Shown here piece by piece: positions 1,082 through 11,821 of a stretch of DNA of 12,123 bases. The position numbers and the translations under genes were made by a program. The stretch covers positions 1 through 12,123 of the IMG/VR virus record IMGVR_UViG_2778261276_000001; one strand, given 5' to 3'. Source of the DNA: a virus. Lineage: Duplodnaviria; Heunggongvirae; Uroviricota; Caudoviricetes. Positions within the stretch are counted from its first letter, which is position 1. Each line of letters starts with the position of its first letter. The notes under the pieces are model-generated. The model was not told the origin of the DNA. It was given only the letters and a program-made list of their open reading frames with translations, and ran no database searches.

Positions 1082-2277
1082 GACTCCACCGTTATAACGA
1101 TATTTTCCGGTGTACAGGACGCAGATTCGTTGTATCTGATATCAATGTTTGATGACGACAAAGCCCCCGGGGATTTCCCAATCGTCAGTTCCTGAATATC
1201 GTAATAGCGTGCATTCCCGCCACTCACCACGCCAAGATTCGCCGGTGAGTAAATGCGACTTAAAAGGACCGAATCACCAATCATCAGACTATTGATATAG
1301 TCGGAAATAGCCTGCTGGATCTGCTGCCCTATCTGTGAGGTATAACCCGTAAAAACTTTTAATTTAATCCGGGCATAAACAGGTACATCACTGGAACGCG
1401 AGAATTTGATTACATGGGGATTGCCGTATTTATCCGGAACCGTAACGGATGTTGTACCGTGAGTGGCTGTCCCCTGGCCTTTATTCCCTCTGATAGCCTG
1501 AGCAATATCCGTCACATCACCGCCATCCACAATTACAGCAACAGAGTGTGGCGGTAACCCGTTACCGTCCTCCGAACCAGTATCGTTTTCATAGAGTTTG
1601 TGGCGGGTTACACCGGTAACATTAGAAACAGCACCATCCAGTGCTTCAAATGGGGTTATTGATGGCAACGCAACACTTTGCGACTGGCGGATACGTAACT
1701 CAGCATCAGTTTCTGCCGGAGAGCCAACAGTAGCCGCAGCAGGATTAGTTACCGAAACCCAGCCACGGGTTGGCGTATTAATTTCAGTGATAGTTCCAGC
1801 CAGCGCCGCCACTGCACCACTGACGGAACATGTTGCGGTCGCCATCACTGTACCATCCACGCCGACCACCACTGAAGCAGGCAAACGCCATATCACATTA
1901 TTACTGTCTTTCACGCTGCCATTAATGATGGTTGTTCCGGCAGTTCCTGTAAGAAGCAAATCAACCGTAGAGTTCGTCGCGCCTTTACGTGAAATACCAT
2001 TTATTTTCACGTTACTGGTCAGTGCAGCCCCATAGCCGGTTGCCGGTGAAAAACAGTTGTAGACAGTTATCGCCATATTATTGGCATCATGAATCGCCAG
2101 CGCCATCAGAGCCACCATCTGGCCGTCTTTGCTGTCCGGTTCGAGGTAGGCATCACTGCCATAAATCTGCTGAAAATAGCTAATCAGGGTGCTGAGTATC
2201 GTCTGATAATCAGGCGCACTGATCCCCTCCGCGGTTACCTTTGCAGATAAACCGAGAGAATCAAGGTTCAGAGCCAT
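1078..2277 (-). CDS. Baseplate J-like protein (P2 gpJ / Mu gp47 family)
   Basis: 399-aa ORF translationally coupled to its neighbours; size and position (after gpW-like, before gpI-like) fit the conserved V-W-J-I baseplate order. Confidence 0.6.
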   Translation of the reverse strand: MALNLDSLGLSAKVTAEGISAPDYQTILSTLISYFQQIYGSDAYLEPDSKDGQMVALMALAIHDANNMAITVYNCFSPATGYGAALTSNVKINGISRKGATNSTVDLLLTGTAGTTIINGSVKDSNNVIWRLPASVVVGVDGTVMATATCSVSGAVAALAGTITEINTPTRGWVSVTNPAAATVGSPAETDAELRIRQSQSVALPSITPFEALDGAVSNVTGVTRHKLYENDTGSEDGNGLPPHSVAVIVDGGDVTDIAQAIRGNKGQGTATHGTTSVTVPDKYGNPHVIKFSRSSDVPVYARIKLKVFTGYTSQIGQQIQQAISDYINSLMIGDSVLLSRIYSPANLGVVSGGNARYYDIQELTIGKSPGALSSSNIDIRYNESASCTPENIVITVES

Positions 2278-2630
2278 TACGCCTCCGATGTAACAGTCGT
2301 TATTCCATAGAGAGTGTCGATTTCAGCGGAAAACATGACACGTCGGGTCGTGGTATCCACCGTCGTATTGAAAGAGAGGATTGATTTAACGCCCTGCGTT
2401 TCGAGGATGCGCTTACGGATCGCCAGGTTGTAAGTTTCTGGTTTTTGCCTGCCCAGCACGGACTGGATCCACGGTGTTCCCTCTGTGGTATCAAGAAACC
2501 ATTGCCCATACCACAATTCGAATCGCGTTTTCACAGCCTGCGCTACGGCCTCAGGCGAGTTAATCAGCCAGGTGTCATCACCGCTGCCAAAGGTGTAATC
2601 GCCATCGGCGTCTTCACGTCTGTATCGCAT
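2277..2630 (-). CDS. Baseplate wedge protein, P2 gpW / Mu gp46-like (gp25-like)
   Basis: 117-aa ORF with 1-nt overlaps to both neighbours; size and synteny between spike and J. Confidence 0.5.
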   Translation of the reverse strand: MRYRREDADGDYTFGSGDDTWLINSPEAVAQAVKTRFELWYGQWFLDTTEGTPWIQSVLGRQKPETYNLAIRKRILETQGVKSILSFNTTVDTTTRRVMFSAEIDTLYGITTVTSEA

Positions 2631-3382
2631 CAGTTTACTCCGTCGGTATTGCTTCCACCGCGCTGAACACCACCATGAGTGTGCGTATCATCGATTGGCT
2701 TGCCGTTAGCCTTCACGCTACCCAAAAACTCAACAGCACCAGTGATTTTTGAAGCCACACCAGAAACAACAGACCCCACCATGCCTCCCATCCAGGTTAA
2801 CAGGCCATGAATGGTTACTTTCTCAGAAAAATCAGCCAGAGGGGCAACCACATCAAGGCCCCCCGGAGCGACAATTTTAATTTTCCTGGTATCAGGATTA
2901 AGCTCAAAATAGGTGCTGCCGTCATCACTACGCAACTGTGTGGCACTGGTATTAATACCGCTAATCTTCCTTGCCTGCGACTGGGGACCGACAATACAAA
3001 ACGCATCCGATAAATCATGCATTCTGTCATCGACCGGCTCCTGTATCCCGCCACTCTGCCACCAGAAATCAATACAACGATCGGCAAAAATCACCAAACA
3101 TTCATCACCGGCTTTAACTGGAAACGTTAGCGTACAGCCTCCGCCACGCGGGAATACCACTGGCACATCCACCAGCAATGGGTAATTTTTGGTAATGCGG
3201 TTGCCGTCGTTATCAATTTCAACGTAACGGATAGCAGGCTGTACAACCGCCGTCACCGCATCAGGAGCGAATGACTGAACAATGCCAGGCAAGGCGACAC
3301 GGATCTGGTTCTTTGTTGTTTCCCGTTCAGATTTAAATGTTTCGGCAAGGTCGCCGCTGCGGGTCTGGTCAGATACTGCCAT
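2630..3382 (-). CDS. Baseplate spike/assembly protein, P2 gpV / Mu gp45-like
   Basis: 250-aa ORF; C-terminal ...DDTHTHGGVQRGGSNTDGVN has an HxH motif typical of spike apex domains; synteny immediately upstream of the W-J-I genes. Confidence 0.6.
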   Translation of the reverse strand: MAVSDQTRSGDLAETFKSERETTKNQIRVALPGIVQSFAPDAVTAVVQPAIRYVEIDNDGNRITKNYPLLVDVPVVFPRGGGCTLTFPVKAGDECLVIFADRCIDFWWQSGGIQEPVDDRMHDLSDAFCIVGPQSQARKISGINTSATQLRSDDGSTYFELNPDTRKIKIVAPGGLDVVAPLADFSEKVTIHGLLTWMGGMVGSVVSGVASKITGAVEFLGSVKANGKPIDDTHTHGGVQRGGSNTDGVN

Positions 3383-3401
3383 TTAGTAGGCTCCAGAAAG
3401 C

Positions 3402-3424
3402 AAAAAACCCGCCAAGTGGCGGGT
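3402..3424 (-). terminator. Rho-independent terminator between the inserted cassette and the spike gene (hairpin can form on either strand)
   Basis: GC stem CCCGCCA-agt-GGCGGG at 3408..3423; on the minus strand it is followed by a T-run (plus-strand AAAAAA at 3402..3407); lies 22 nt after the stop of the 142-aa gene. Confidence 0.6.
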
Positions 3425-3446
3425 TTGAATTTTGAGAAATTTCAGC

Positions 3447-3875
3447 TTATGCAGTTAACGAGTCATCACCAATCTTCAGTAATTGATTAACGATTGCATC
3501 GACCTCTTCCGCATCCAGAATTACACTTCTCGCGGTAATCCGGTTGATTTTCCGCTCAAGCTTGTAATCAGAATTAACACGTTGGGCATGCGTCATTTTC
3601 AGTTTAACGCCGATTTTCTTTACTGCGTTAACATCAACATCGTTAAGTGCAGCTGCCTCACCACTACAAAAGGCCGTATAGACTCGCATGTGAACTCCAC
3701 CTTTTAGTTTTTCACCATCTTGTGTAGCGGTCGGTACCAGATTGTTGGTGATCCGTAAGGCGGAATGGTACATACCATAGTATGCTCGGCTAATAGCATT
3801 TCTCGTCCACATCTCACCGTTTAGAGCCAGGGAATGCTTAGCCAATTCAAGAAAACAGGTATGCTCAACCGACAT
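3447..3875 (-). CDS. Hypothetical 142-aa protein with an R-x6-H (HEPN-like) motif; second gene of an overlapping pair
   Basis: ORF with TAATG start/stop overlap to the upstream 243-aa gene; motif NAISRAYYGMYHSAL contains R-x6-H; about 43% GC in a sampled stretch versus about 55% in the flanking tail genes. Confidence 0.7.
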   Translation of the reverse strand: MSVEHTCFLELAKHSLALNGEMWTRNAISRAYYGMYHSALRITNNLVPTATQDGEKLKGGVHMRVYTAFCSGEAAALNDVDVNAVKKIGVKLKMTHAQRVNSDYKLERKINRITARSVILDAEEVDAIVNQLLKIGDDSLTA

Positions 3876-4606
3876 TAGAGTTCCCCGGCTTCAAAGCATC
3901 CGACGCATTCTGAATCCGCAAGCCCCGCAATAATAATCTCATCAGCCAAGGCATTATTCATCTGCGAAAGAAGCACTGGATCGTCTGTTTTGACTTCAAC
4001 GAACAGCGTATCAAGTTCTGACATTACATAAAAAGCATGAGCGCCAGCAAGACGAGCGCGGTACTTTTCTGCAACGTTCATCATGAGCCGCCCAATAGTT
4101 TTTAGCTCCTGAGCATGATCTTTTTGGGTATGCAGATAATTGAGCGTGTCATACCATTTGCCCATATCTTCAGGGCGCGGTACTTCCATTGCAGTTAGCA
4201 TCGGCATCACCTTTTCAAGCAAATCGATATCAACCCAGTATGCAGAAATTGTAGCAACCTCAGCCAATATCGTTGGATTAAGTGAATCAGATGCTTTCTG
4301 AATCATCACATACTGGCGAGCATGCAAACCTAAGTTACGCAGCGCAATCGTATAGTTACAAAAAGAAACTGGATCGTTAGGCGCTATTCTCAACCCCCGC
4401 TCACAGAGTGAACATCCTTCATCTATTTCACCAAGAACAAGCTTAGCTAAGCCTTCAATTGATAGCCCCTGATAACGTTCAGGTAGTTTCTTCGCTTCAC
4501 GAATGATTCGATGGATTTCAAACTCACTCAGAAGGTTTTCACCCTTAGTTAATGAAGGAGTCAGAAGATCTAACAGTTCTCCTGATTTTGGCTGCGCTAA
4601 ACTCAT
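3875..4606 (-). CDS. Hypothetical 243-aa protein, no recognisable motif; first gene of the overlapping pair
   Basis: Long ORF with a plausible RBS (AGGA about 10 nt upstream of ATG); preceded by a 149-bp intergenic region; translationally coupled to the 142-aa gene. Confidence 0.7.
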   Translation of the reverse strand: MSLAQPKSGELLDLLTPSLTKGENLLSEFEIHRIIREAKKLPERYQGLSIEGLAKLVLGEIDEGCSLCERGLRIAPNDPVSFCNYTIALRNLGLHARQYVMIQKASDSLNPTILAEVATISAYWVDIDLLEKVMPMLTAMEVPRPEDMGKWYDTLNYLHTQKDHAQELKTIGRLMMNVAEKYRARLAGAHAFYVMSELDTLFVEVKTDDPVLLSQMNNALADEIIIAGLADSECVGCFEAGEL

Positions 4607-4691
4607 GTTTTAGTTATTCCTGGCTTTAATGAAGTAGCATATCGATGGCAATCCACCATCAAAAAGTCAGTGCAGTGTAATCGCTCGTCTC

Positions 4692-4730
4692 AAAAAACAA
4701 CAGTTTTTAGAGCACATTTTGTTGTTTTTC
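4692..4730. promoter_or_regulatory. AT-rich inverted repeat (AAAAACAACA ... TGTTGTTTTT, 17-nt spacer) in the intergenic region upstream of the 243-aa gene
   Basis: Near-perfect 10-bp inverted repeat at 4693..4702 and 4720..4729; could be an operator or a weak terminator after the secreted-protein gene. Confidence 0.35.
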
Positions 4731-4755
4731 AGGCGTTACGAATTTCAGGTTACCT

Positions 4756-5097
4756 TCACCCAGCCACTTTTTTACAAGGGAAAGATCCGATGATTTTCGG
4801 CGCATCCATGCTGTTCTGCAGAAGCTGGACATTCAGGAATCGCGTTTCGGTACCAGGGCGACGAATGTATTCAAAGCCGTAGTTGTTACCGTCTTTGGCA
4901 GGCATAAGCCCCATGTCTACTTTCAAACCATTGGTACCCAGTTCGGTGATTTTTTGAGAGGTAACTCTTTCACCGTTGATAGTCGATAACTCGCCCTGGT
5001 TTGCAACCATAGTGTAGCCACCGCATTTAACCGTGAAGCCATCCGCCCACGCGCTGCACGCAGAAAAGACAGCTAACAGAAAAATAATACCCCTCAT
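4756..5097 (-). CDS. Secreted protein with N-terminal signal peptide (possible lipoprotein), 113 aa
   Basis: N-terminus MRGIIFLLAVFSACSAWA-DGF has a hydrophobic h-region and an AxA signal-peptidase I site; the Cys in FSAC could be a non-canonical lipobox; start 3 nt after the stop of the hub-like gene. Confidence 0.65.
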   Translation of the reverse strand: MRGIIFLLAVFSACSAWADGFTVKCGGYTMVANQGELSTINGERVTSQKITELGTNGLKVDMGLMPAKDGNNYGFEYIRRPGTETRFLNVQLLQNSMDAPKIIGSFPCKKVAG

Positions 5098-5100
5098 TGC

Positions 5101-6162
5101 TCATCCCCTTTGCAAAGCCGATCGCGTATACAGATCCGCCGCGCCACGCGCTTCGCACATCATATCCATGTACCACGCCTGGCCCCTTGTGTCGCCAGTG
5201 TACATAATCCCGCGCACAATATAAACGCCATCCGTTGCGATGCTGGCAGGCTGCGATGTGGTGCCGCTTAGCGTGATATTTCCATCCGTGTTCTGGTCGG
5301 TGATCTGACCACCAGCCATCGCAATATCGTTGTTCGACAAGGCGGTACGATACACGGAAGCCTGATCCAGTTGAATGAGCCCATTAACCCGGATGTTCGG
5401 ATTAATAAGCGCGCGGACGTTTACGCCGTTGCCGATGGTCTGCTGCGGCATGCCAATAAGCCCGGTAGCGCTGTTGAGCACAATCGCTTCGTGAACATAT
5501 TCATTATTCACCACCATCTGGCGCTGACCATCCACGAATTGCCATGTTGCGCCACATTGCCCGGCTACGTTATCCATTAGATGCCGCGTCATGCCAAAGA
5601 GCACCCGCCCCCGGGGGAATACAGTAGCAGGCATTTCAGGCGTCAGGCCTTCGGTCGCACCTTTGGCTTCGAAGTCTTTCATCAGCGCACGGTTCACATC
5701 AGCGACCGTGTAACCGGCAGCCAGCGTCTGTGAGGTTATACTGGTGGCAAAAGCCAGATCAGTATCTGCTGCCTGAATCAGGACGTAGGAATCAACCGGA
5801 CTGTCTTTTCCTGTGACCGAGTAGCGAATTTCACCGCTGAAAATCAGTCCGTAGTTGCGGCCATCTCTCTGGCCCACGTCCGCCGCGTCAACTTCCCGCA
5901 CGGTCCCTACGTCGCTTGCTGACACCTCCGGCGCGATACCGTCGTAACCGGCAATCAGACGCACTTTCGAAAATTCCTGCCCGGTGATTCGGTTCACAGT
6001 ATCTGCCGAGAGGTTATAAATTTTGATAGTCCCTACCCGGGACGCGCTGCTGATGTTGAACCAGTCGATCGTAAAGGTGACTTTGAAATCACTTAGCTCA
6101 ATTCCCTGACCGTTCCCGTCCACAAGCTGCAGCTCGAAATGTCTCATCCAGTTCTGTGACAT
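5101..6162 (-). CDS. Phage tail protein, probably baseplate hub (Mu gp44 / P2 gpD-like) by position
   Basis: 353-aa ORF with GGAG RBS; first gene of the tail operon in this window; function assigned only by synteny upstream of the spike gene. Confidence 0.45.
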   Translation of the reverse strand: MSQNWMRHFELQLVDGNGQGIELSDFKVTFTIDWFNISSASRVGTIKIYNLSADTVNRITGQEFSKVRLIAGYDGIAPEVSASDVGTVREVDAADVGQRDGRNYGLIFSGEIRYSVTGKDSPVDSYVLIQAADTDLAFATSITSQTLAAGYTVADVNRALMKDFEAKGATEGLTPEMPATVFPRGRVLFGMTRHLMDNVAGQCGATWQFVDGQRQMVVNNEYVHEAIVLNSATGLIGMPQQTIGNGVNVRALINPNIRVNGLIQLDQASVYRTALSNNDIAMAGGQITDQNTDGNITLSGTTSQPASIATDGVYIVRGIMYTGDTRGQAWYMDMMCEARGAADLYTRSALQRG

Positions 6163-6164
6163 GC

Positions 6165-6371
6165 TTACTCCGTTGATACCAGTAAATGACTGAGGCCGCC
6201 CAGATCAGTTTTCGTGGGATAATCCTGTGTGTTGTCATCGCAGACCACCACCAGCTTAAAACCAAGTCCCATAACTTCTTTCCACTGAGAGACTGCTGCA
6301 TCGCTAATGCCTAGTGCTTTAGCAACAGCACGCTGGGTTCCGAAGTGGTCAATAACATCTTTTTTGTACAT
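6165..6371 (-). pseudogene. cro: Truncated/chimeric cro: the first ~33 codons match P22/phage-21-type Cro, then fused in frame to unrelated sequence
   Basis: N-terminus MYKKDVIDHFGTQRAVAKALGISDAAVSQWKEV matches P22 Cro as I recall it (61 aa); the remaining 35 residues MGLGFKLVVVCDDNTQDYPTKTDLGGLSHLLVSTE are unrelated and the ORF stops 2 nt before the tail-gene ATG. Confidence 0.65.
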
Positions 6372-6451: not shown

Positions 6452-7102
6452 ATGAATACACAACTGATGGGTGAGCGTATTCGCGCTCGCAGAAAAGAAC
6501 TCAAGATTAGGCAGGCTGCCCTTGGCAAGATGGTTGGCGTGTCTAATGTTGCTATTTCCCAATGGGAGCGATCTGAAACTGAGCCCAATGGCGAAAACCT
6601 ATTGGCCTTAGCCAAGGCTTTGCAGTGCTCCCCTGATTACCTGTTGAAAGGAGAGGATAGTCTTTCAAACATTGCCTATCACAGCAGGCATGATCCAAGA
6701 GGTTCGTATCCTCTAATTAGTTGGGTAAGCGCAGGATGTTGGATGGAAGCTGTAGAGCCATATCATAGGCGTGCAATAGATAACTGGTACGACACAACGG
6801 TAGATTGTTCTGAAGACTCTTTTTGGCTCGACGTTAAAGGCGATTCAATGACTGCCCCGGCAGGACTGAGTATTCCTGAGGGGATGATTATTCTCGTCGA
6901 CCCAGAAGTCGAACCACGTAATGGAAAGCTGGTAGTCGCCAAACTTGAAGGAGAAAACGAGGCGACATTCAAAAAGTTAGTTATTGATGCCGGTAGAAAA
7001 TTCCTGAAACCACTCAATCCACAATACCCAATGATTGAAATCAATGGGAACTGTAAAATCATTGGCGTTGTCGTTGATGCCAAGCTAGCAAACCTTCCTT
7101 AA
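6452..7102 (+). CDS. cI: Repressor, P22 C2 / phage 21 cI type (HTH plus S24 LexA-like autopeptidase domain)
   Basis: 216-aa protein MNTQLMGERIRARRKELKIRQAALGKMVGVSNVAISQWERSETEPNGENLLALAKALQCSPDYLL... is near-identical to P22 C2 repressor as I recall it; C-terminal GDSM (Ser nucleophile) and a conserved Lys; divergent from cro across the operator region. Confidence 0.93.
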   Translation: MNTQLMGERIRARRKELKIRQAALGKMVGVSNVAISQWERSETEPNGENLLALAKALQCSPDYLLKGEDSLSNIAYHSRHDPRGSYPLISWVSAGCWMEAVEPYHRRAIDNWYDTTVDCSEDSFWLDVKGDSMTAPAGLSIPEGMIILVDPEVEPRNGKLVVAKLEGENEATFKKLVIDAGRKFLKPLNPQYPMIEINGNCKIIGVVVDAKLANLP

Positions 7103-7306: not shown

Positions 7307-7416
7307 CCAGAACTTGAGTGGTTTTGGGGATGGCGCGAATTGCAGCTGCAAGACAGCGATCGAGAAGATAAGCACCTCGACGCGTCATGCGCCAAAGCCA
7401 CTTAAAGGAGACCATC

Positions 7417-7722
7417 ATGGTAACCATTGTCTGGAAAGAATCCAAAGGTACGGCAAAAAGCCGCTACAAAGCTCGCAGAGCAGAACTTATTGCCGAGCGA
7501 CGCAGTAATGAAGCACTGGCGCGAAAAATTGCGCTAAAGCTCTCTGGTTGCGTCAGAGCAGACAAAGCAGCATCACTAGGAAGCCTTTGCTGCAAGAAGA
7601 AAGAAGAAGTCGTTCGAAAAAATAGAAGTATTTATTACAAAGATTCAAACCCGTTAGGAAACAAAATACATGCAGTCCAAAAAATAAAATTGTACAGTAA
7701 ACTACCGTACGGTGCTTATTGA
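7417..7722 (+). CDS. N: Antitermination protein N, phage-21 type
   Basis: AAGGAG RBS before the ATG at 7417; N-terminal arginine-rich motif GTAKSRYKARRAELIAERR matches the phi21 N ARM as I recall it; downstream of nutL. Confidence 0.8.
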   Translation: MVTIVWKESKGTAKSRYKARRAELIAERRSNEALARKIALKLSGCVRADKAASLGSLCCKKKEEVVRKNRSIYYKDSNPLGNKIHAVQKIKLYSKLPYGAY

Positions 7723-7730
7723 GTATGCTT

Positions 7731-8063
7731 ATGGTGAAAAAGACTATTTATGTTAATCCTGACCGCGGACAAAACAGAAAAGTATCTGATAGAGGTCTTA
7801 CATCTCGAGACAGGAGGAGAATAGCGAGATGGGAAAAAAGGATAGCATATGCATTAAAAAACGGTGTAACACCTGGATTTAATGCTATAGATGACGGTCC
7901 TGAATATAAGATTAATGAAGAACCAATGGACAAAGTTGACAAAGCATTAGCAACACCATTTCCTCGCGATGTCGAAAAAATTGAAGATGAAAAATATGAG
8001 GATGTAATGCACAGAGTTGTTAATCACGCTCACCAACGAAATCCAAATAAAAAATGGTCATAG
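7731..8063 (+). CDS. nun: Transcription termination/exclusion factor Nun (HK022-type); the exact start is uncertain (ATG 7725, ATG 7731 or GTG 7734)
   Basis: Contains the ARM SRDRRRIARWEKRIAYALKNGV and the C-terminus ...HAHQRNPNKKWS with the penultimate Trp characteristic of HK022 Nun; overlaps the N stop codon. Confidence 0.85.
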   Translation: MVKKTIYVNPDRGQNRKVSDRGLTSRDRRRIARWEKRIAYALKNGVTPGFNAIDDGPEYKINEEPMDKVDKALATPFPRDVEKIEDEKYEDVMHRVVNHAHQRNPNKKWS

Positions 8064-8085
8064 CCCACTTCGGTGGGTTTTTTAT
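8064..8085 (+). terminator. Rho-independent terminator after nun
   Basis: CCCAC-ttcg-GTGGG hairpin followed by TTTTTTATT immediately after the nun stop. Confidence 0.75.
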
Positions 8086-8202
8086 TGTCTGAACAAATCT
8101 AATTTACTACCGCAAGCCACGCAGTGAAATGAGGGTTACCTGCTCAGGCCGCCAGAAGCAACGCGGAAAATCAATTCCAGCTTATTACGATTGAGGTGAG
8201 CC

Positions 8203-8340
8203 ATGCTCAAGAAAGTCAAACGCCGACTTTACAAAGAAGGTAGATATTCATGCCAGTTGCCAAAATGCGACACAACAAAATGGAGTGTCGATGACTGGTG
8301 TAACTGGATAGATAGATACGGAACTTGGTGGGATAAATAA
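8203..8340 (+). CDS. Small hypothetical protein (45 aa, basic N-terminus, Cys/Trp-rich) at the position of lambda sieB
   Basis: ATG preceded by GAGGTGA RBS; MLKKVKRRLYKEGRYSCQLPKCDTTKWSVDDWCNWIDRYGTWWDK; below the ORF-track size cut-off; leader sequence repeated upstream of two other ORFs. Confidence 0.4.
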   Translation: MLKKVKRRLYKEGRYSCQLPKCDTTKWSVDDWCNWIDRYGTWWDK

Positions 8341-8394
8341 CAGGTAACTTAAGCGTATTTACTTTCGCAGCAAACCACTTATTTGAGGTGAGAT

Positions 8395-8481
8395 ATGGAA
8401 GAAGAATTTGAAGAGTTCGAAGAGCATCCTCAGGATGTGATGGAACAATACCAGGACTATCCGTATGACTACGACTATTGA
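8395..8481 (+). CDS. orf28: orf28-like small acidic protein (28 aa)
   Basis: GAGGTGA RBS; MEEEFEEFEEHPQDVMEQYQDYPYDYDY; length 28 aa and a 17-nt overlap with the ral start match the lambda orf28/ral arrangement as I recall it. Confidence 0.55.
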   Translation: MEEEFEEFEEHPQDVMEQYQDYPYDYDY

Positions 8482-8562
8482 TAAAAATCAATGGTGTGGA
8501 CAATACGAACGACGACAATGATTGCCAGAGAACTTGGTAAACAGAACTACAAGGCTGCCTGA
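8465..8562 (+). pseudogene. ral: ral (restriction alleviation) with an internal ~103-bp frameshifting deletion
   Basis: N-terminus MTTTIDKNQWCGQ matches lambda Ral and stops after 18 codons (8465..8521); the Ral C-terminus MIARELGKQN.KAA is encoded in another frame at 8518..8562; junction at a CAAT microhomology. Confidence 0.6.
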
Positions 8563-9264: not shown

Positions 9265-9633
9265 ATGTCAAACATCAAAAAATACATCATTGATTACGAC
9301 TGGAAAGCATCAATAGAAATTGAAATCGACCATGACGTAATGACAGAGGAAAAACTTCACCAGATTAATAATTTCTGGTCAGACTCTGAATACCGACTAA
9401 ATAAACACGGCTCTTTATTAAATGCTGTATTAATCATGCTGGCGCAACATGCTCTGCTTATAGCAATTTCGAAAGACTTAAATGCATATGGTGTTGTTTG
9501 TGAGTTCGACTGGGATGATGGAAATGGTCAGGAAGGATGGCCTCCAATGGATGGTAGTGAAGGAATAAGAATTACCGATATCGATACATCAGGAATATTT
9601 GATTCAGATGATATGACTATCAAGGCCGCCTGA
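9265..9633 (+). CDS. ea10: Ea10-like protein (lambda Ea10)
   Basis: 122-aa ORF of the same length and position as lambda ea10, immediately upstream of cIII; sequence appears lambda-like from memory. Confidence 0.8.
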   Translation: MSNIKKYIIDYDWKASIEIEIDHDVMTEEKLHQINNFWSDSEYRLNKHGSLLNAVLIMLAQHALLIAISKDLNAYGVVCEFDWDDGNGQEGWPPMDGSEGIRITDIDTSGIFDSDDMTIKAA

Positions 9634-10358: not shown

Positions 10359-11144
10359 ATGAGTACAGCACTCGCAACGCTGGCTGGGAAGCTGGCTGAA
10401 CGTGTCGGCATGGATTCTGTCGACCCACAGGAACTGATCACCACTCTTCGCCAGACGGCATTTAAAGGTGATGCCAGCGATGCGCAGTTCATCGCATTGT
10501 TGATCGTCGCCAACCAGTACGGCCTTAATCCGTGGACGAAAGAAATTTACGCCTTCCCTGATAAGCAGAACGGCATCGTTCCGGTGGTGGGCGTTGATGG
10601 CTGGTCCCGCATCATCAATGAAAACCAGCAGTTTGATGGCATGGACTTTGAGCAGGACAATGAATCCTGCACATGCCGGATTTACCGCAAGGACCGTAAT
10701 CATCCGATCTGCGTTACCGAGTGGATGGATGAATGCCGCCGCGAACCATTCAAAACCCGCGAAGGCAGAGAAATCACGGGGCCGTGGCAGTCGCATCCCA
10801 AACGGATGTTACGTCATAAAGCCATGATTCAGTGTGCCCGTCTGGCCTTCGGATTTGCTGGTATCTATGACAAGGATGAAGCCGAGCGCATTGTCGAAAA
10901 TACCGCATACACTGCAGAACGTCAGCCGGAACGCGACATCACTCCGGTTAACGATGAAACCATGCAGGAGATTAACACTCTGCTGATTGCCCTGGATAAA
11001 ACATGGGATGACGACTTATTGCCGCTCTGTTCCCAGATATTTCGCCGCGACATTCGCGCATCGTCAGAACTGACACAGGCCGAAGCAGTGAAAGCTCTTG
11101 GATTCCTGAAACAGAAAGCCACTGAGCAGAAGGTGGCAGCATGA
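10359..11144 (+). CDS. bet: Bet (Red beta single-strand annealing protein)
   Basis: 261-aa product [72 protein letters not shown]... matches lambda Red beta; 4-nt overlap with exo. Confidence 0.97.
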
Positions 11145-11821
11145 CACCGGACATTATACTGCAGCGTACCGGGATCGACGTGAGAGCTGTCGAACAGGGG
11201 GATGATGCGTGGCACAAATTACGGCTCGGCGTCATCACCGCTTCAGAGGTTCACAATGTGATAGCAAAACCCCGCTCCGGAAAGAAATGGCCTGACATGA
11301 AAATGTCCTACTTCCACACCCTGCTTGCCGAGGTTTGCACCGGTGTGGCTCCGGAAGTTAACGCTAAGGCGCTGGCCTGGGGAAAACAGTACGAGAACGA
11401 CGCCAGAGCCCTGTTTGAGTTTACTTCCGGCGTGAATGTTACTGAATCCCCGATCATCTATCGCGACGAAAGTATGCGTACCGCCTGCTCTCCGGATGGT
11501 TTATGCAGTGACGGCAACGGCCTTGAGCTGAAATGCCCGTTTACCTCCCGGGATTTCATGAAGTTCCGGCTCGGTGGTTTCGAGGCCATAAAGTCGGCTT
11601 ACATGGCCCAGGTGCAGTACAGCATGTGGGTGACGCGAAAAGATGCCTGGTACTTTGCCAACTATGACCCGCGTATGAAGCGTGAAGGCCTGCATTATGT
11701 CGTGATTGAGCGGAATGAAAAGTACATGGCGAATTTTGACGAGATGGTGCCGGAGTTCATCGAAAAAATGGACGTGGCACTGGCTGAAATTGGTTTTGTA
11801 TTTGGGGAGCAATGGCGATGA
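11141..11821 (+). CDS. exo: Exo (lambda exonuclease, Red alpha)
   Basis: 226-aa product [44 protein letters not shown]... matches lambda Exo. Confidence 0.97.

Follow-up and report, generated by a model that had tools for sequence, protein, structure and literature searches.

Small phage proteins that carry a cleavable signal peptide and act in the periplasm after adsorption are exemplified by Spackle (Sp) of phage T4 and Sim of phage P1, which in these respects resemble the role proposed here for a 113-residue protein encoded in a prophage tail operon. Spackle is helical, whereas the 113-residue protein is predicted to be all-beta, gave no match to Spackle in a PDB sequence-profile search and showed no fold homology to it; moreover, T4 sp is an early gene, whereas the gene studied here sits in a late tail operon. 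PliC/MliC-type lysozyme inhibitors differ as well, since no PF09864 match was found at E ≤ 10 (Pfam, 21 members), the inhibitory loops SxSGAxY and YxxxTKG are absent from 130/130 relatives, the similarity of the protein to these inhibitors is no better than that to avidins, and the protein does not co-vary with the tail lysozyme domain (see below). In genetic architecture, the locus is closer to the lambdoid morons (e.g., HK97 gp15, lambda bor and lom, and Cor), which likewise consist of extra DNA with its own terminator between genes that are adjacent in relatives, lie within a late structural operon and specify an envelope-targeted product. Unlike these morons, however, the 113-codon gene has no identified promoter and starts 3 nt past the upstream gene, while its product is neither a lipoprotein nor a membrane protein and has no homology to theirs.

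The gene lies on the minus strand of the window, i.e., the whole stretch of 12,123 nucleotides that was analysed, within the following set of features, given in the direction of transcription.

5101-6162, minus strand: baseplate hub gene, the invariant upstream neighbour (phrog_196, E 5e-88)
5098-5109, minus strand: 3-nt spacer, hub stop codon and AGGGG Shine-Dalgarno-like run (direct sequence reading)
4756-5097, minus strand: precursor gene of the 113-residue protein, PHROG 3443 family (ORF listing, PHROG match, dN/dS, homologous clusters)
5044-5097, minus strand: signal peptide, residues 1-18 (MRGIIFLLAVFSACSAWA), with a predicted SPase I cut after AWA (130-relative alignment)
4756-5043, minus strand: mature domain of 95 aa plus stop codon, predicted to be a small up-and-down beta-barrel with Cys25 and Cys108
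3447-4755, minus strand: variable cargo slot, comprising a 149-nt spacer and the 243-aa and 142-aa genes (homology breaks against loci with other cargo)
3397-3426, minus strand: intrinsic terminator, AAACCCGCC-ACTT-GGCGGGTTT plus T-run, directly upstream of the spike gene (terminator scan)
2630-3382, minus strand: gene of the membrane-puncturing spike, the downstream backbone neighbour (PF18352 N-terminal domain and Apex motif in Pfam, synteny)

The ORF at 4756-5097 has an ATG start, encodes 113 aa and begins MRGIIFLLAVFSACSAWADGF (ORF listing). Residues 2-112 matched positions 2-114 of the 115-position profile of PHROG 3443 ('unknown function') with an E-value of 8.4e-48, and homologous clusters numbered 396 in a single-sequence search and 595 in a profile search, all of them named 'hypothetical'. 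Pairwise dN/dS values were 0.10-0.14, against 0.05-0.21 for the neighbouring tail genes. Judged from the full-length match, the number of homologous clusters and the low dN/dS, the ORF is, far beyond chance, a real gene under purifying selection. Public assemblies contain the exact protein in 2,982 index blocks. PHROG 3443 itself can be described from these matches as an uncharacterised family of ~600 protein clusters in Enterobacterales prophages, among whose members are Klebsiella phage Mulock gp20 ('putative membrane protein'), a protein of ST340-VIM1phi10.1 ('putative exported protein') and the SEN34 and YP3 homologues, the RefSeq counterparts being 'hypothetical protein' entries of the WP_001214055 type. 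Searches of Pfam (also at E ≤ 10, 21 members), NCBIfam and PADLOC returned no family for the protein, the PDB sequence-profile search returned noise only (best match E 0.16), and a second profile search with the family matched only close relatives. No characterisation of PHROG 3443 was found in the literature on SEN34, on PHROG 3443 or on exported morons of tail operons.

The initial annotation placed the start of the ORF 3 nt past a hub-like gene, and both the ORF coordinates and the phrog_196 match of the hub bear this out: the hub stop codon ends at 5101 and the ATG lies at 5097, leaving a spacer of 3 nt (5098-5100). The hub ORF also gave a weak match to PF22759 (E217_GP41; Pfam). The AGGGG run lies inside the last codons of the hub, 7 nt 5′ of the ATG, and together with the 3-nt spacing it suggests that the two genes may be translationally coupled. 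In a comparison of 96 loci, drawn from bacterial genomes and from viral contigs, the hub was the direct upstream neighbour of the PHROG 3443 gene in every case (96/96), with a spacing of 0-6 nt or an overlap. Synonymous diversity over the last ~30 codons of the hub (5101-5190, minus strand) was 0.135-0.17, vs. a gene mean of 0.25, which could reflect either a regulatory signal for the downstream gene embedded in the hub or a recombination boundary. No consensus sigma-70 promoter above background was detected upstream of the gene, either in the window or in two further loci that were scanned, and aligning the 3′ end of the hub likewise gave no promoter, the lowered synonymous diversity being the sole hint.

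A clear signal peptide had been claimed for the protein, and this reading held up in an alignment of 130 distinct full-length relatives and in a rule-based test (i.e., positive n-region, hydrophobic h-region and small residues at positions –3 and –1). The window allele conforms to the Sec/SPase I rules with R2, the h-region IIFLLAVF and the cleavage site AWA|D, while Ala occurs at –3 in 120/130 relatives and at –1 in 125/130. A Lys or Arg is found among the first six residues in 100/130 relatives, the median uncharged run is 21 residues, and only a single relative (1/130) has an acidic residue within the first 15 positions. The signal-peptide codons are the most variable of the gene, with a non-synonymous diversity of 0.54 vs. 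0.07-0.14 in the C-terminal half; such drifting sequence with a preserved character is typical of a signal peptide. The mature protein (95 aa, 10.3 kDa and pI 8.7 by computation) retains Cys25 and Cys108, which are invariant in 130/130 relatives and may be linked by a disulfide in the periplasm that ties the first strand to the last.

The further suggestion that the protein might be a lipoprotein was not upheld. Although the VFSAC motif of the window allele places a Cys at position 14, this lipobox-like residue is present in only 6 of the 130 relatives (108/130 have Phe) and is lost even in alleles that are at least 82% identical. Because Cys14 is not conserved, processing by signal peptidase II was ruled out in favour of the protein being a substrate of signal peptidase I. 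Among the relatives, a true lipobox (LSGC) occurs only in the fusion protein P0147 (6001-6879 of locus L113), a 292-aa product, likewise encoded directly after the hub, in which the lipobox is followed by an unknown ~190-aa domain and a C-terminal PHROG 3443 domain. With its lipoprotein anchor and its position in the same slot, P0147 also points to the periplasm as the location of the PHROG 3443 domain. The 113-residue protein is very probably an exported periplasmic accessory protein.

AlphaFold2 modelled the protein as a small up-and-down beta-barrel, with a low-confidence N-terminal helix (residues 3-15) apart from the barrel. Fold matches were to generic barrels only, the top ones being ligand-binding barrels (avidin, streptavidin, and fatty-acid or retinoid binders), and no ligand-binding motif was identified in the protein. 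An outer-membrane barrel was considered and rejected, as 95 residues with strands of 6-8 residues would be too small and the C-terminal aromatic signal is lacking.

The tail module belongs to the 'minimal myophage' type of SEN34 (Brunovirus) and Pam3, with the order tape measure, Dit-like protein, Pam3_gp18 plug, hub, 113-codon gene, cargo and spike, followed by sheath initiator, baseplate J, wedge and fibres. In Pam3 itself, the plug, hub and spike are encoded by the consecutive genes gp18-gp20 (PMC11633184). Nearly all phage records with a hub that is at least 50% identical carry a PHROG 3443 gene. Among more distant relatives, hub and spike genes are adjacent or overlapping, with no PHROG 3443 gene in between, in Providencia PSTCR3, Bordetella IFTN9, Acinetobacter AbTJ and Ralstonia PY059. 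Moreover, Hafnia phage yong1, an isolated and viable phage with a 77% identical hub, has no PHROG 3443 homologue anywhere in its genome. Since yong1 and these more distant relatives do without it, the gene is not needed for building the tail. The protein therefore did not turn out to be a conserved tail-assembly chaperone, the outcome that would have spoken against the initial annotation: it carries export signals, and neither yong1 nor the relatives named above that share this baseplate encode it. Inserted between two genes that adjoin each other in related phages, and belonging to a unit with its own transcription terminator, the 113-codon gene is by comparative criteria accessory and moron-like, rather than a conserved tail-assembly component.

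Other small exported products were seen in the same hub-spike slot. Phage EKP1 carries two unrelated small signal-peptide ORFs there (1324-1566 and 1591-1914 of locus L120), and Burkholderia phage Magia carries another unrelated one on the opposite strand (1969-2340, minus strand, of locus L104), which suggests that the site repeatedly recruits exported proteins.

The window as a whole is, judged from its homologies, a deleted prophage. On its tail side, homology to E. coli prophages reaches position 6273, and the match of its immunity side begins at 6271, giving an overlap of 3 nt at the joint, where the ORF at 6165-6371 (minus strand) is chimeric: its residues 1-33 correspond to a P22-type Cro and the rest to the C-terminus of a Pam3_gp18-type baseplate plug. 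The deletion at 6271-6273 would amount to roughly 25 kb if the SEN34 genome (40.7 kb) is taken as the yardstick, and the joint is spanned by none of the complete E. coli genomes in the collection. The window lacks the replication, lysis and head genes together with most tail genes, while the 113-codon gene, the cargo and the distal baseplate genes are intact. The remaining half of the window consists of a lambdoid early region, with an S24/HTH repressor at 6452-7102 (plus strand) and, at 10359-11821 (plus strand), ORFs of 261 and 226 aa that we take to be lambda Bet and Exo. The best E. coli match of the window also has a feature named 'Bet'.

Downstream of the gene, a hairpin with T-run precedes the spike gene in 90/94 loci, usually ~16-25 nt before the spike ATG, and its stems vary in compensating ways (ACCCGC/GCGGGT, AAGCCGC/GCGGTTT, AACCTGC/GCAGGTT and AACCCGGC/GCCGGGTT). 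In cargo-less loci, as in locus L088, the terminator directly follows the PHROG 3443 gene, so that the basal unit consists of hub, PHROG 3443 gene, terminator and spike, and the terminator is, on this comparative reading, the right boundary of an accessory unit of gene plus terminator. A conserved terminator inside a tail operon in turn implies that late transcription needs antitermination to reach the spike, wedge and fibre genes.

Between the gene and the terminator lies the cargo, which in the window comprises ORFs of 243 aa (3875-4606, minus strand) and 142 aa (3447-3875, minus strand) on the same strand as the 113-codon gene. In BLAST comparisons with loci carrying other cargo, homology stopped at window positions 4756-4769 (i.e., the last codons and stop codon of the gene) and resumed at ~3425-3430. 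Across the 96 loci, the distance from the PHROG 3443 gene to the spike gene ranged from 9 to 2035 nt, the slot holding anything from nothing to ~2 kb. A hairpin in the 149-nt spacer after the 113-codon gene is AT-rich and not significant (z –1.3). The idea that the protein may act together with the downstream pair found no backing in the co-occurrence data: the 243/142 pair accompanies the PHROG 3443 gene in 19/96 loci, a 142-like gene with a different partner in 12/96, and neither in 65/96. Alleles at least 96% identical to that of the window are found with four or more cargo states, and more diverged alleles without any cargo. Since the pair is present in only 19 of the 96 loci, gene and pair are not obligate partners, and such a partnership was rejected also because the cargo boundary falls exactly at the stop codon of the gene. 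Gene and pair may nevertheless be transcribed together as far as the terminator that they have in common. The 142-aa protein gave a weak HEPN_IX match (E 0.009) and recurs with different partners.

At long range, the PHROG 3443 gene is the most divergent of the module, with 27-33% identity where the hub keeps 51-65%, and four E. coli phages with 98% identical hubs have PHROG 3443 proteins that are only 55% identical. Allele P0046 is a mosaic, with an N-terminal part of 37% and a C-terminal part of 100% identity. In Serratia aquatilis (NZ_CP173186.1, 4458-9346 of locus L017), the hub-to-spike interval contains seven tandem PHROG 3443 paralogues, one of which is truncated (5989-6216), with an IS transposase gene inserted on the opposite strand at 7325-8533. 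All full copies have a signal peptide and both cysteines and differ mainly in the N-terminal half, and the array ends in a strong terminator at 9420-9441. The seven paralogues, the P0046 mosaic and the long-range divergence argue for a binder with variable specificity.

The best explanation that we can offer for the locus as a whole is that it encodes an exported accessory barrel that excludes homotypic phages after adsorption, an account that we put forward tentatively, its probability falling somewhat short of even. Under this explanation, a unit of gene and terminator would have been gained between hub and spike by the Enterobacterales branch of the SEN34/Pam3-type myophage tail module, and the stop codon of the gene would later have turned into the left boundary of a cargo hotspot. 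While the phage grows lytically, the precursor would presumably be made together with the tail proteins via translational coupling to the hub, while the terminator would end any non-antiterminated transcription ahead of the spike gene. Following Sec export, signal peptidase I would cut after Ala18 and release a soluble, disulfide-bonded beta-barrel of 95 residues into the periplasm, which would be neither a virion nor an assembly protein. There, the barrel would bind and block a post-adsorption step of incoming phages of the same tail type, be it tail-tip penetration or DNA transit, and the outcome would be homotypic superinfection exclusion by a logic like that of T4 Spackle or P1 Sim. Within this account, the sequence comparisons establish the gene with its export signals, synteny and terminator and its standing as an accessory gene, whereas disulfide, solubility, pattern of expression and exclusion are inferred.

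A periplasmic binder engaged in phage-phage conflict would fit a soluble periplasmic barrel that is dispensable for the virion, fixed beside the tail-tip genes, part of its own terminated unit, modular in its N-terminal variation and occasionally amplified in tandem. Its target is more likely the tail tip than the receptor, since identical alleles are found beside different fibre genes and since the divergence of the protein tracks that of the hub best among the tail-protein partners examined for co-variation (r 0.80); this correlation with the hub may be mere physical linkage. More specifically, the identical protein occurs beside different tail-fibre genes, with an adjoining resolvase gene in 6 of the 8 places shown. 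These loci (L105-L112, ~11.7-14.3 kb) have differing sets of fibre and chaperone genes, and in the six places with the resolvase, which is Hin/Gin-like by its Pfam domains, there are inverted fibre genes, which suggests an invertible fibre segment that serves as a host-range switch.

Superinfection exclusion by the 113-residue protein, which is proposed by analogy, is plausible, at a probability somewhat below even. The main weakness of the model lies in expression in the lysogen, which classical exclusion requires: no sigma-70 promoter was found upstream, and the tight coupling to the hub suggests late expression. The overall dN/dS of ~0.1, which shows no gene-wide positive selection, also counts against exclusion. 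No homology was found to Cor, Bor, Llp, Spackle, any PADLOC model or any known exclusion family (Pfam, NCBIfam and PHROG at E ≤ 10; PDB profile).

Of the competing explanations, a lysogenic-conversion or envelope-physiology factor apart from exclusion survives best, for example as a calycin/avidin-type ligand binder or as a stress-tolerance or virulence factor. The avidin, streptavidin and fatty-acid/retinoid binders among the top fold matches, the moron-like architecture with terminator and the very wide distribution of the exact protein in E. coli genomes would all agree with such a factor. However, the strict tie to one tail-module slot over deep divergence, the tandem paralogues and the N-terminal allele swapping fit a phage-directed specificity better, and the protein lacks a recognisable ligand-binding motif, so that we regard this explanation as unlikely.

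A periplasmic inhibitor of peptidoglycan hydrolases, acting either in a PliC/MliC-like manner on lysozymes or in a Spackle-like manner on the lysozyme domain of the tape measure, is less probable still. A possible target does exist, as the tape-measure protein of an intact relative has an Enc34-endolysin-like domain at aa 484-616 (E 5e-13 to 7q47; PMC8943055). Yet the divergence of the 113-residue protein correlated with that of the tape-measure lysozyme domain at r 0.40 only, the weakest value among the tail-protein partners and half that for the hub, and this domain has been swapped for an SLT domain in phages that keep PHROG 3443, while the PliC/MliC motifs are missing from every relative. 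The C-terminal peptidoglycan-hydrolase domain of the tape measure was seen to vary by lineage, being Enc34-endolysin-like (PHA02564) in an E. coli prophage (E. coli MS 119-7; 16054-18042, minus strand, of locus L004) and SLT (PF01464) in others (2016-4022 of locus L113).

The 3-nt spacing to the hub, the shared late operon and the lack of a detected independent promoter imply late co-expression, and would thereby also suit a late-acting periplasmic factor of the lytic cycle, e.g., one involved in lysis timing or a T4 RI-like antiholin. Such a function is nonetheless improbable: the gene is distant from every lysis cassette, viable relatives do without it, a lysis regulator would not be expected to form a paralogue array or to swap alleles, and the conserved terminator suggests that transcription follows a logic of its own.

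T5 Llp and lambdoid Cor are small exported proteins whose genes lie near tail genes, and by analogy the 113-residue protein might bind an outer-membrane receptor from the periplasmic side and block adsorption. Receptor masking of this kind is highly improbable, because the identical protein is found beside different fibre genes, mostly with an adjoining resolvase, and is thus not matched to one receptor; in addition, the protein is not a lipoprotein (Cys14 in 6/130) and is homologous to none of Cor, Llp and Bor in our searches. Least probable of all is a tail-assembly chaperone or minor virion or membrane-insertion component with the N-terminal helix as an uncleaved anchor, which would account for the fixed hub-spike position and for purifying selection like that on tail genes, but is at odds with the conserved AxA cleavage motif, the invariant Cys pair and the absence of the gene from Pam3, many same-baseplate relatives and the viable phage yong1.

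Returning to the exported accessory barrel, the 113-residue protein is a member of a widespread uncharacterised family within a known kind, namely the exported accessory proteins of phages. A more far-reaching proposal, which we consider rather doubtful at present, is that PHROG 3443 constitutes a new periplasmic immunity or exclusion family that recognises the tip of contractile tails, i.e., the complex of hub, spike or tape-measure end, during its passage through the periplasm, with a swappable N-terminal specificity module, protection broadened by arrays (possibly also against tailocins), and a stop codon and terminator that bound an undescribed cargo hotspot in one of the commonest prophage types of E. 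coli and Klebsiella.

Myophage prophages of the SEN34-like kind abound in E. coli, Klebsiella and Salmonella, and the index blocks of assemblies with this exact protein alone number ~3,000. Being conserved, periplasmic and encoded by such common prophages, the protein is therefore a cheap, testable candidate for a new exclusion or envelope factor, and it could affect the host range of phages used in therapy. Independently of what the protein does, the cargo slot is sharply bounded, from the stop codon of the gene to the terminator before the spike, and offers a place to search for defence genes such as the 243/142 pair.
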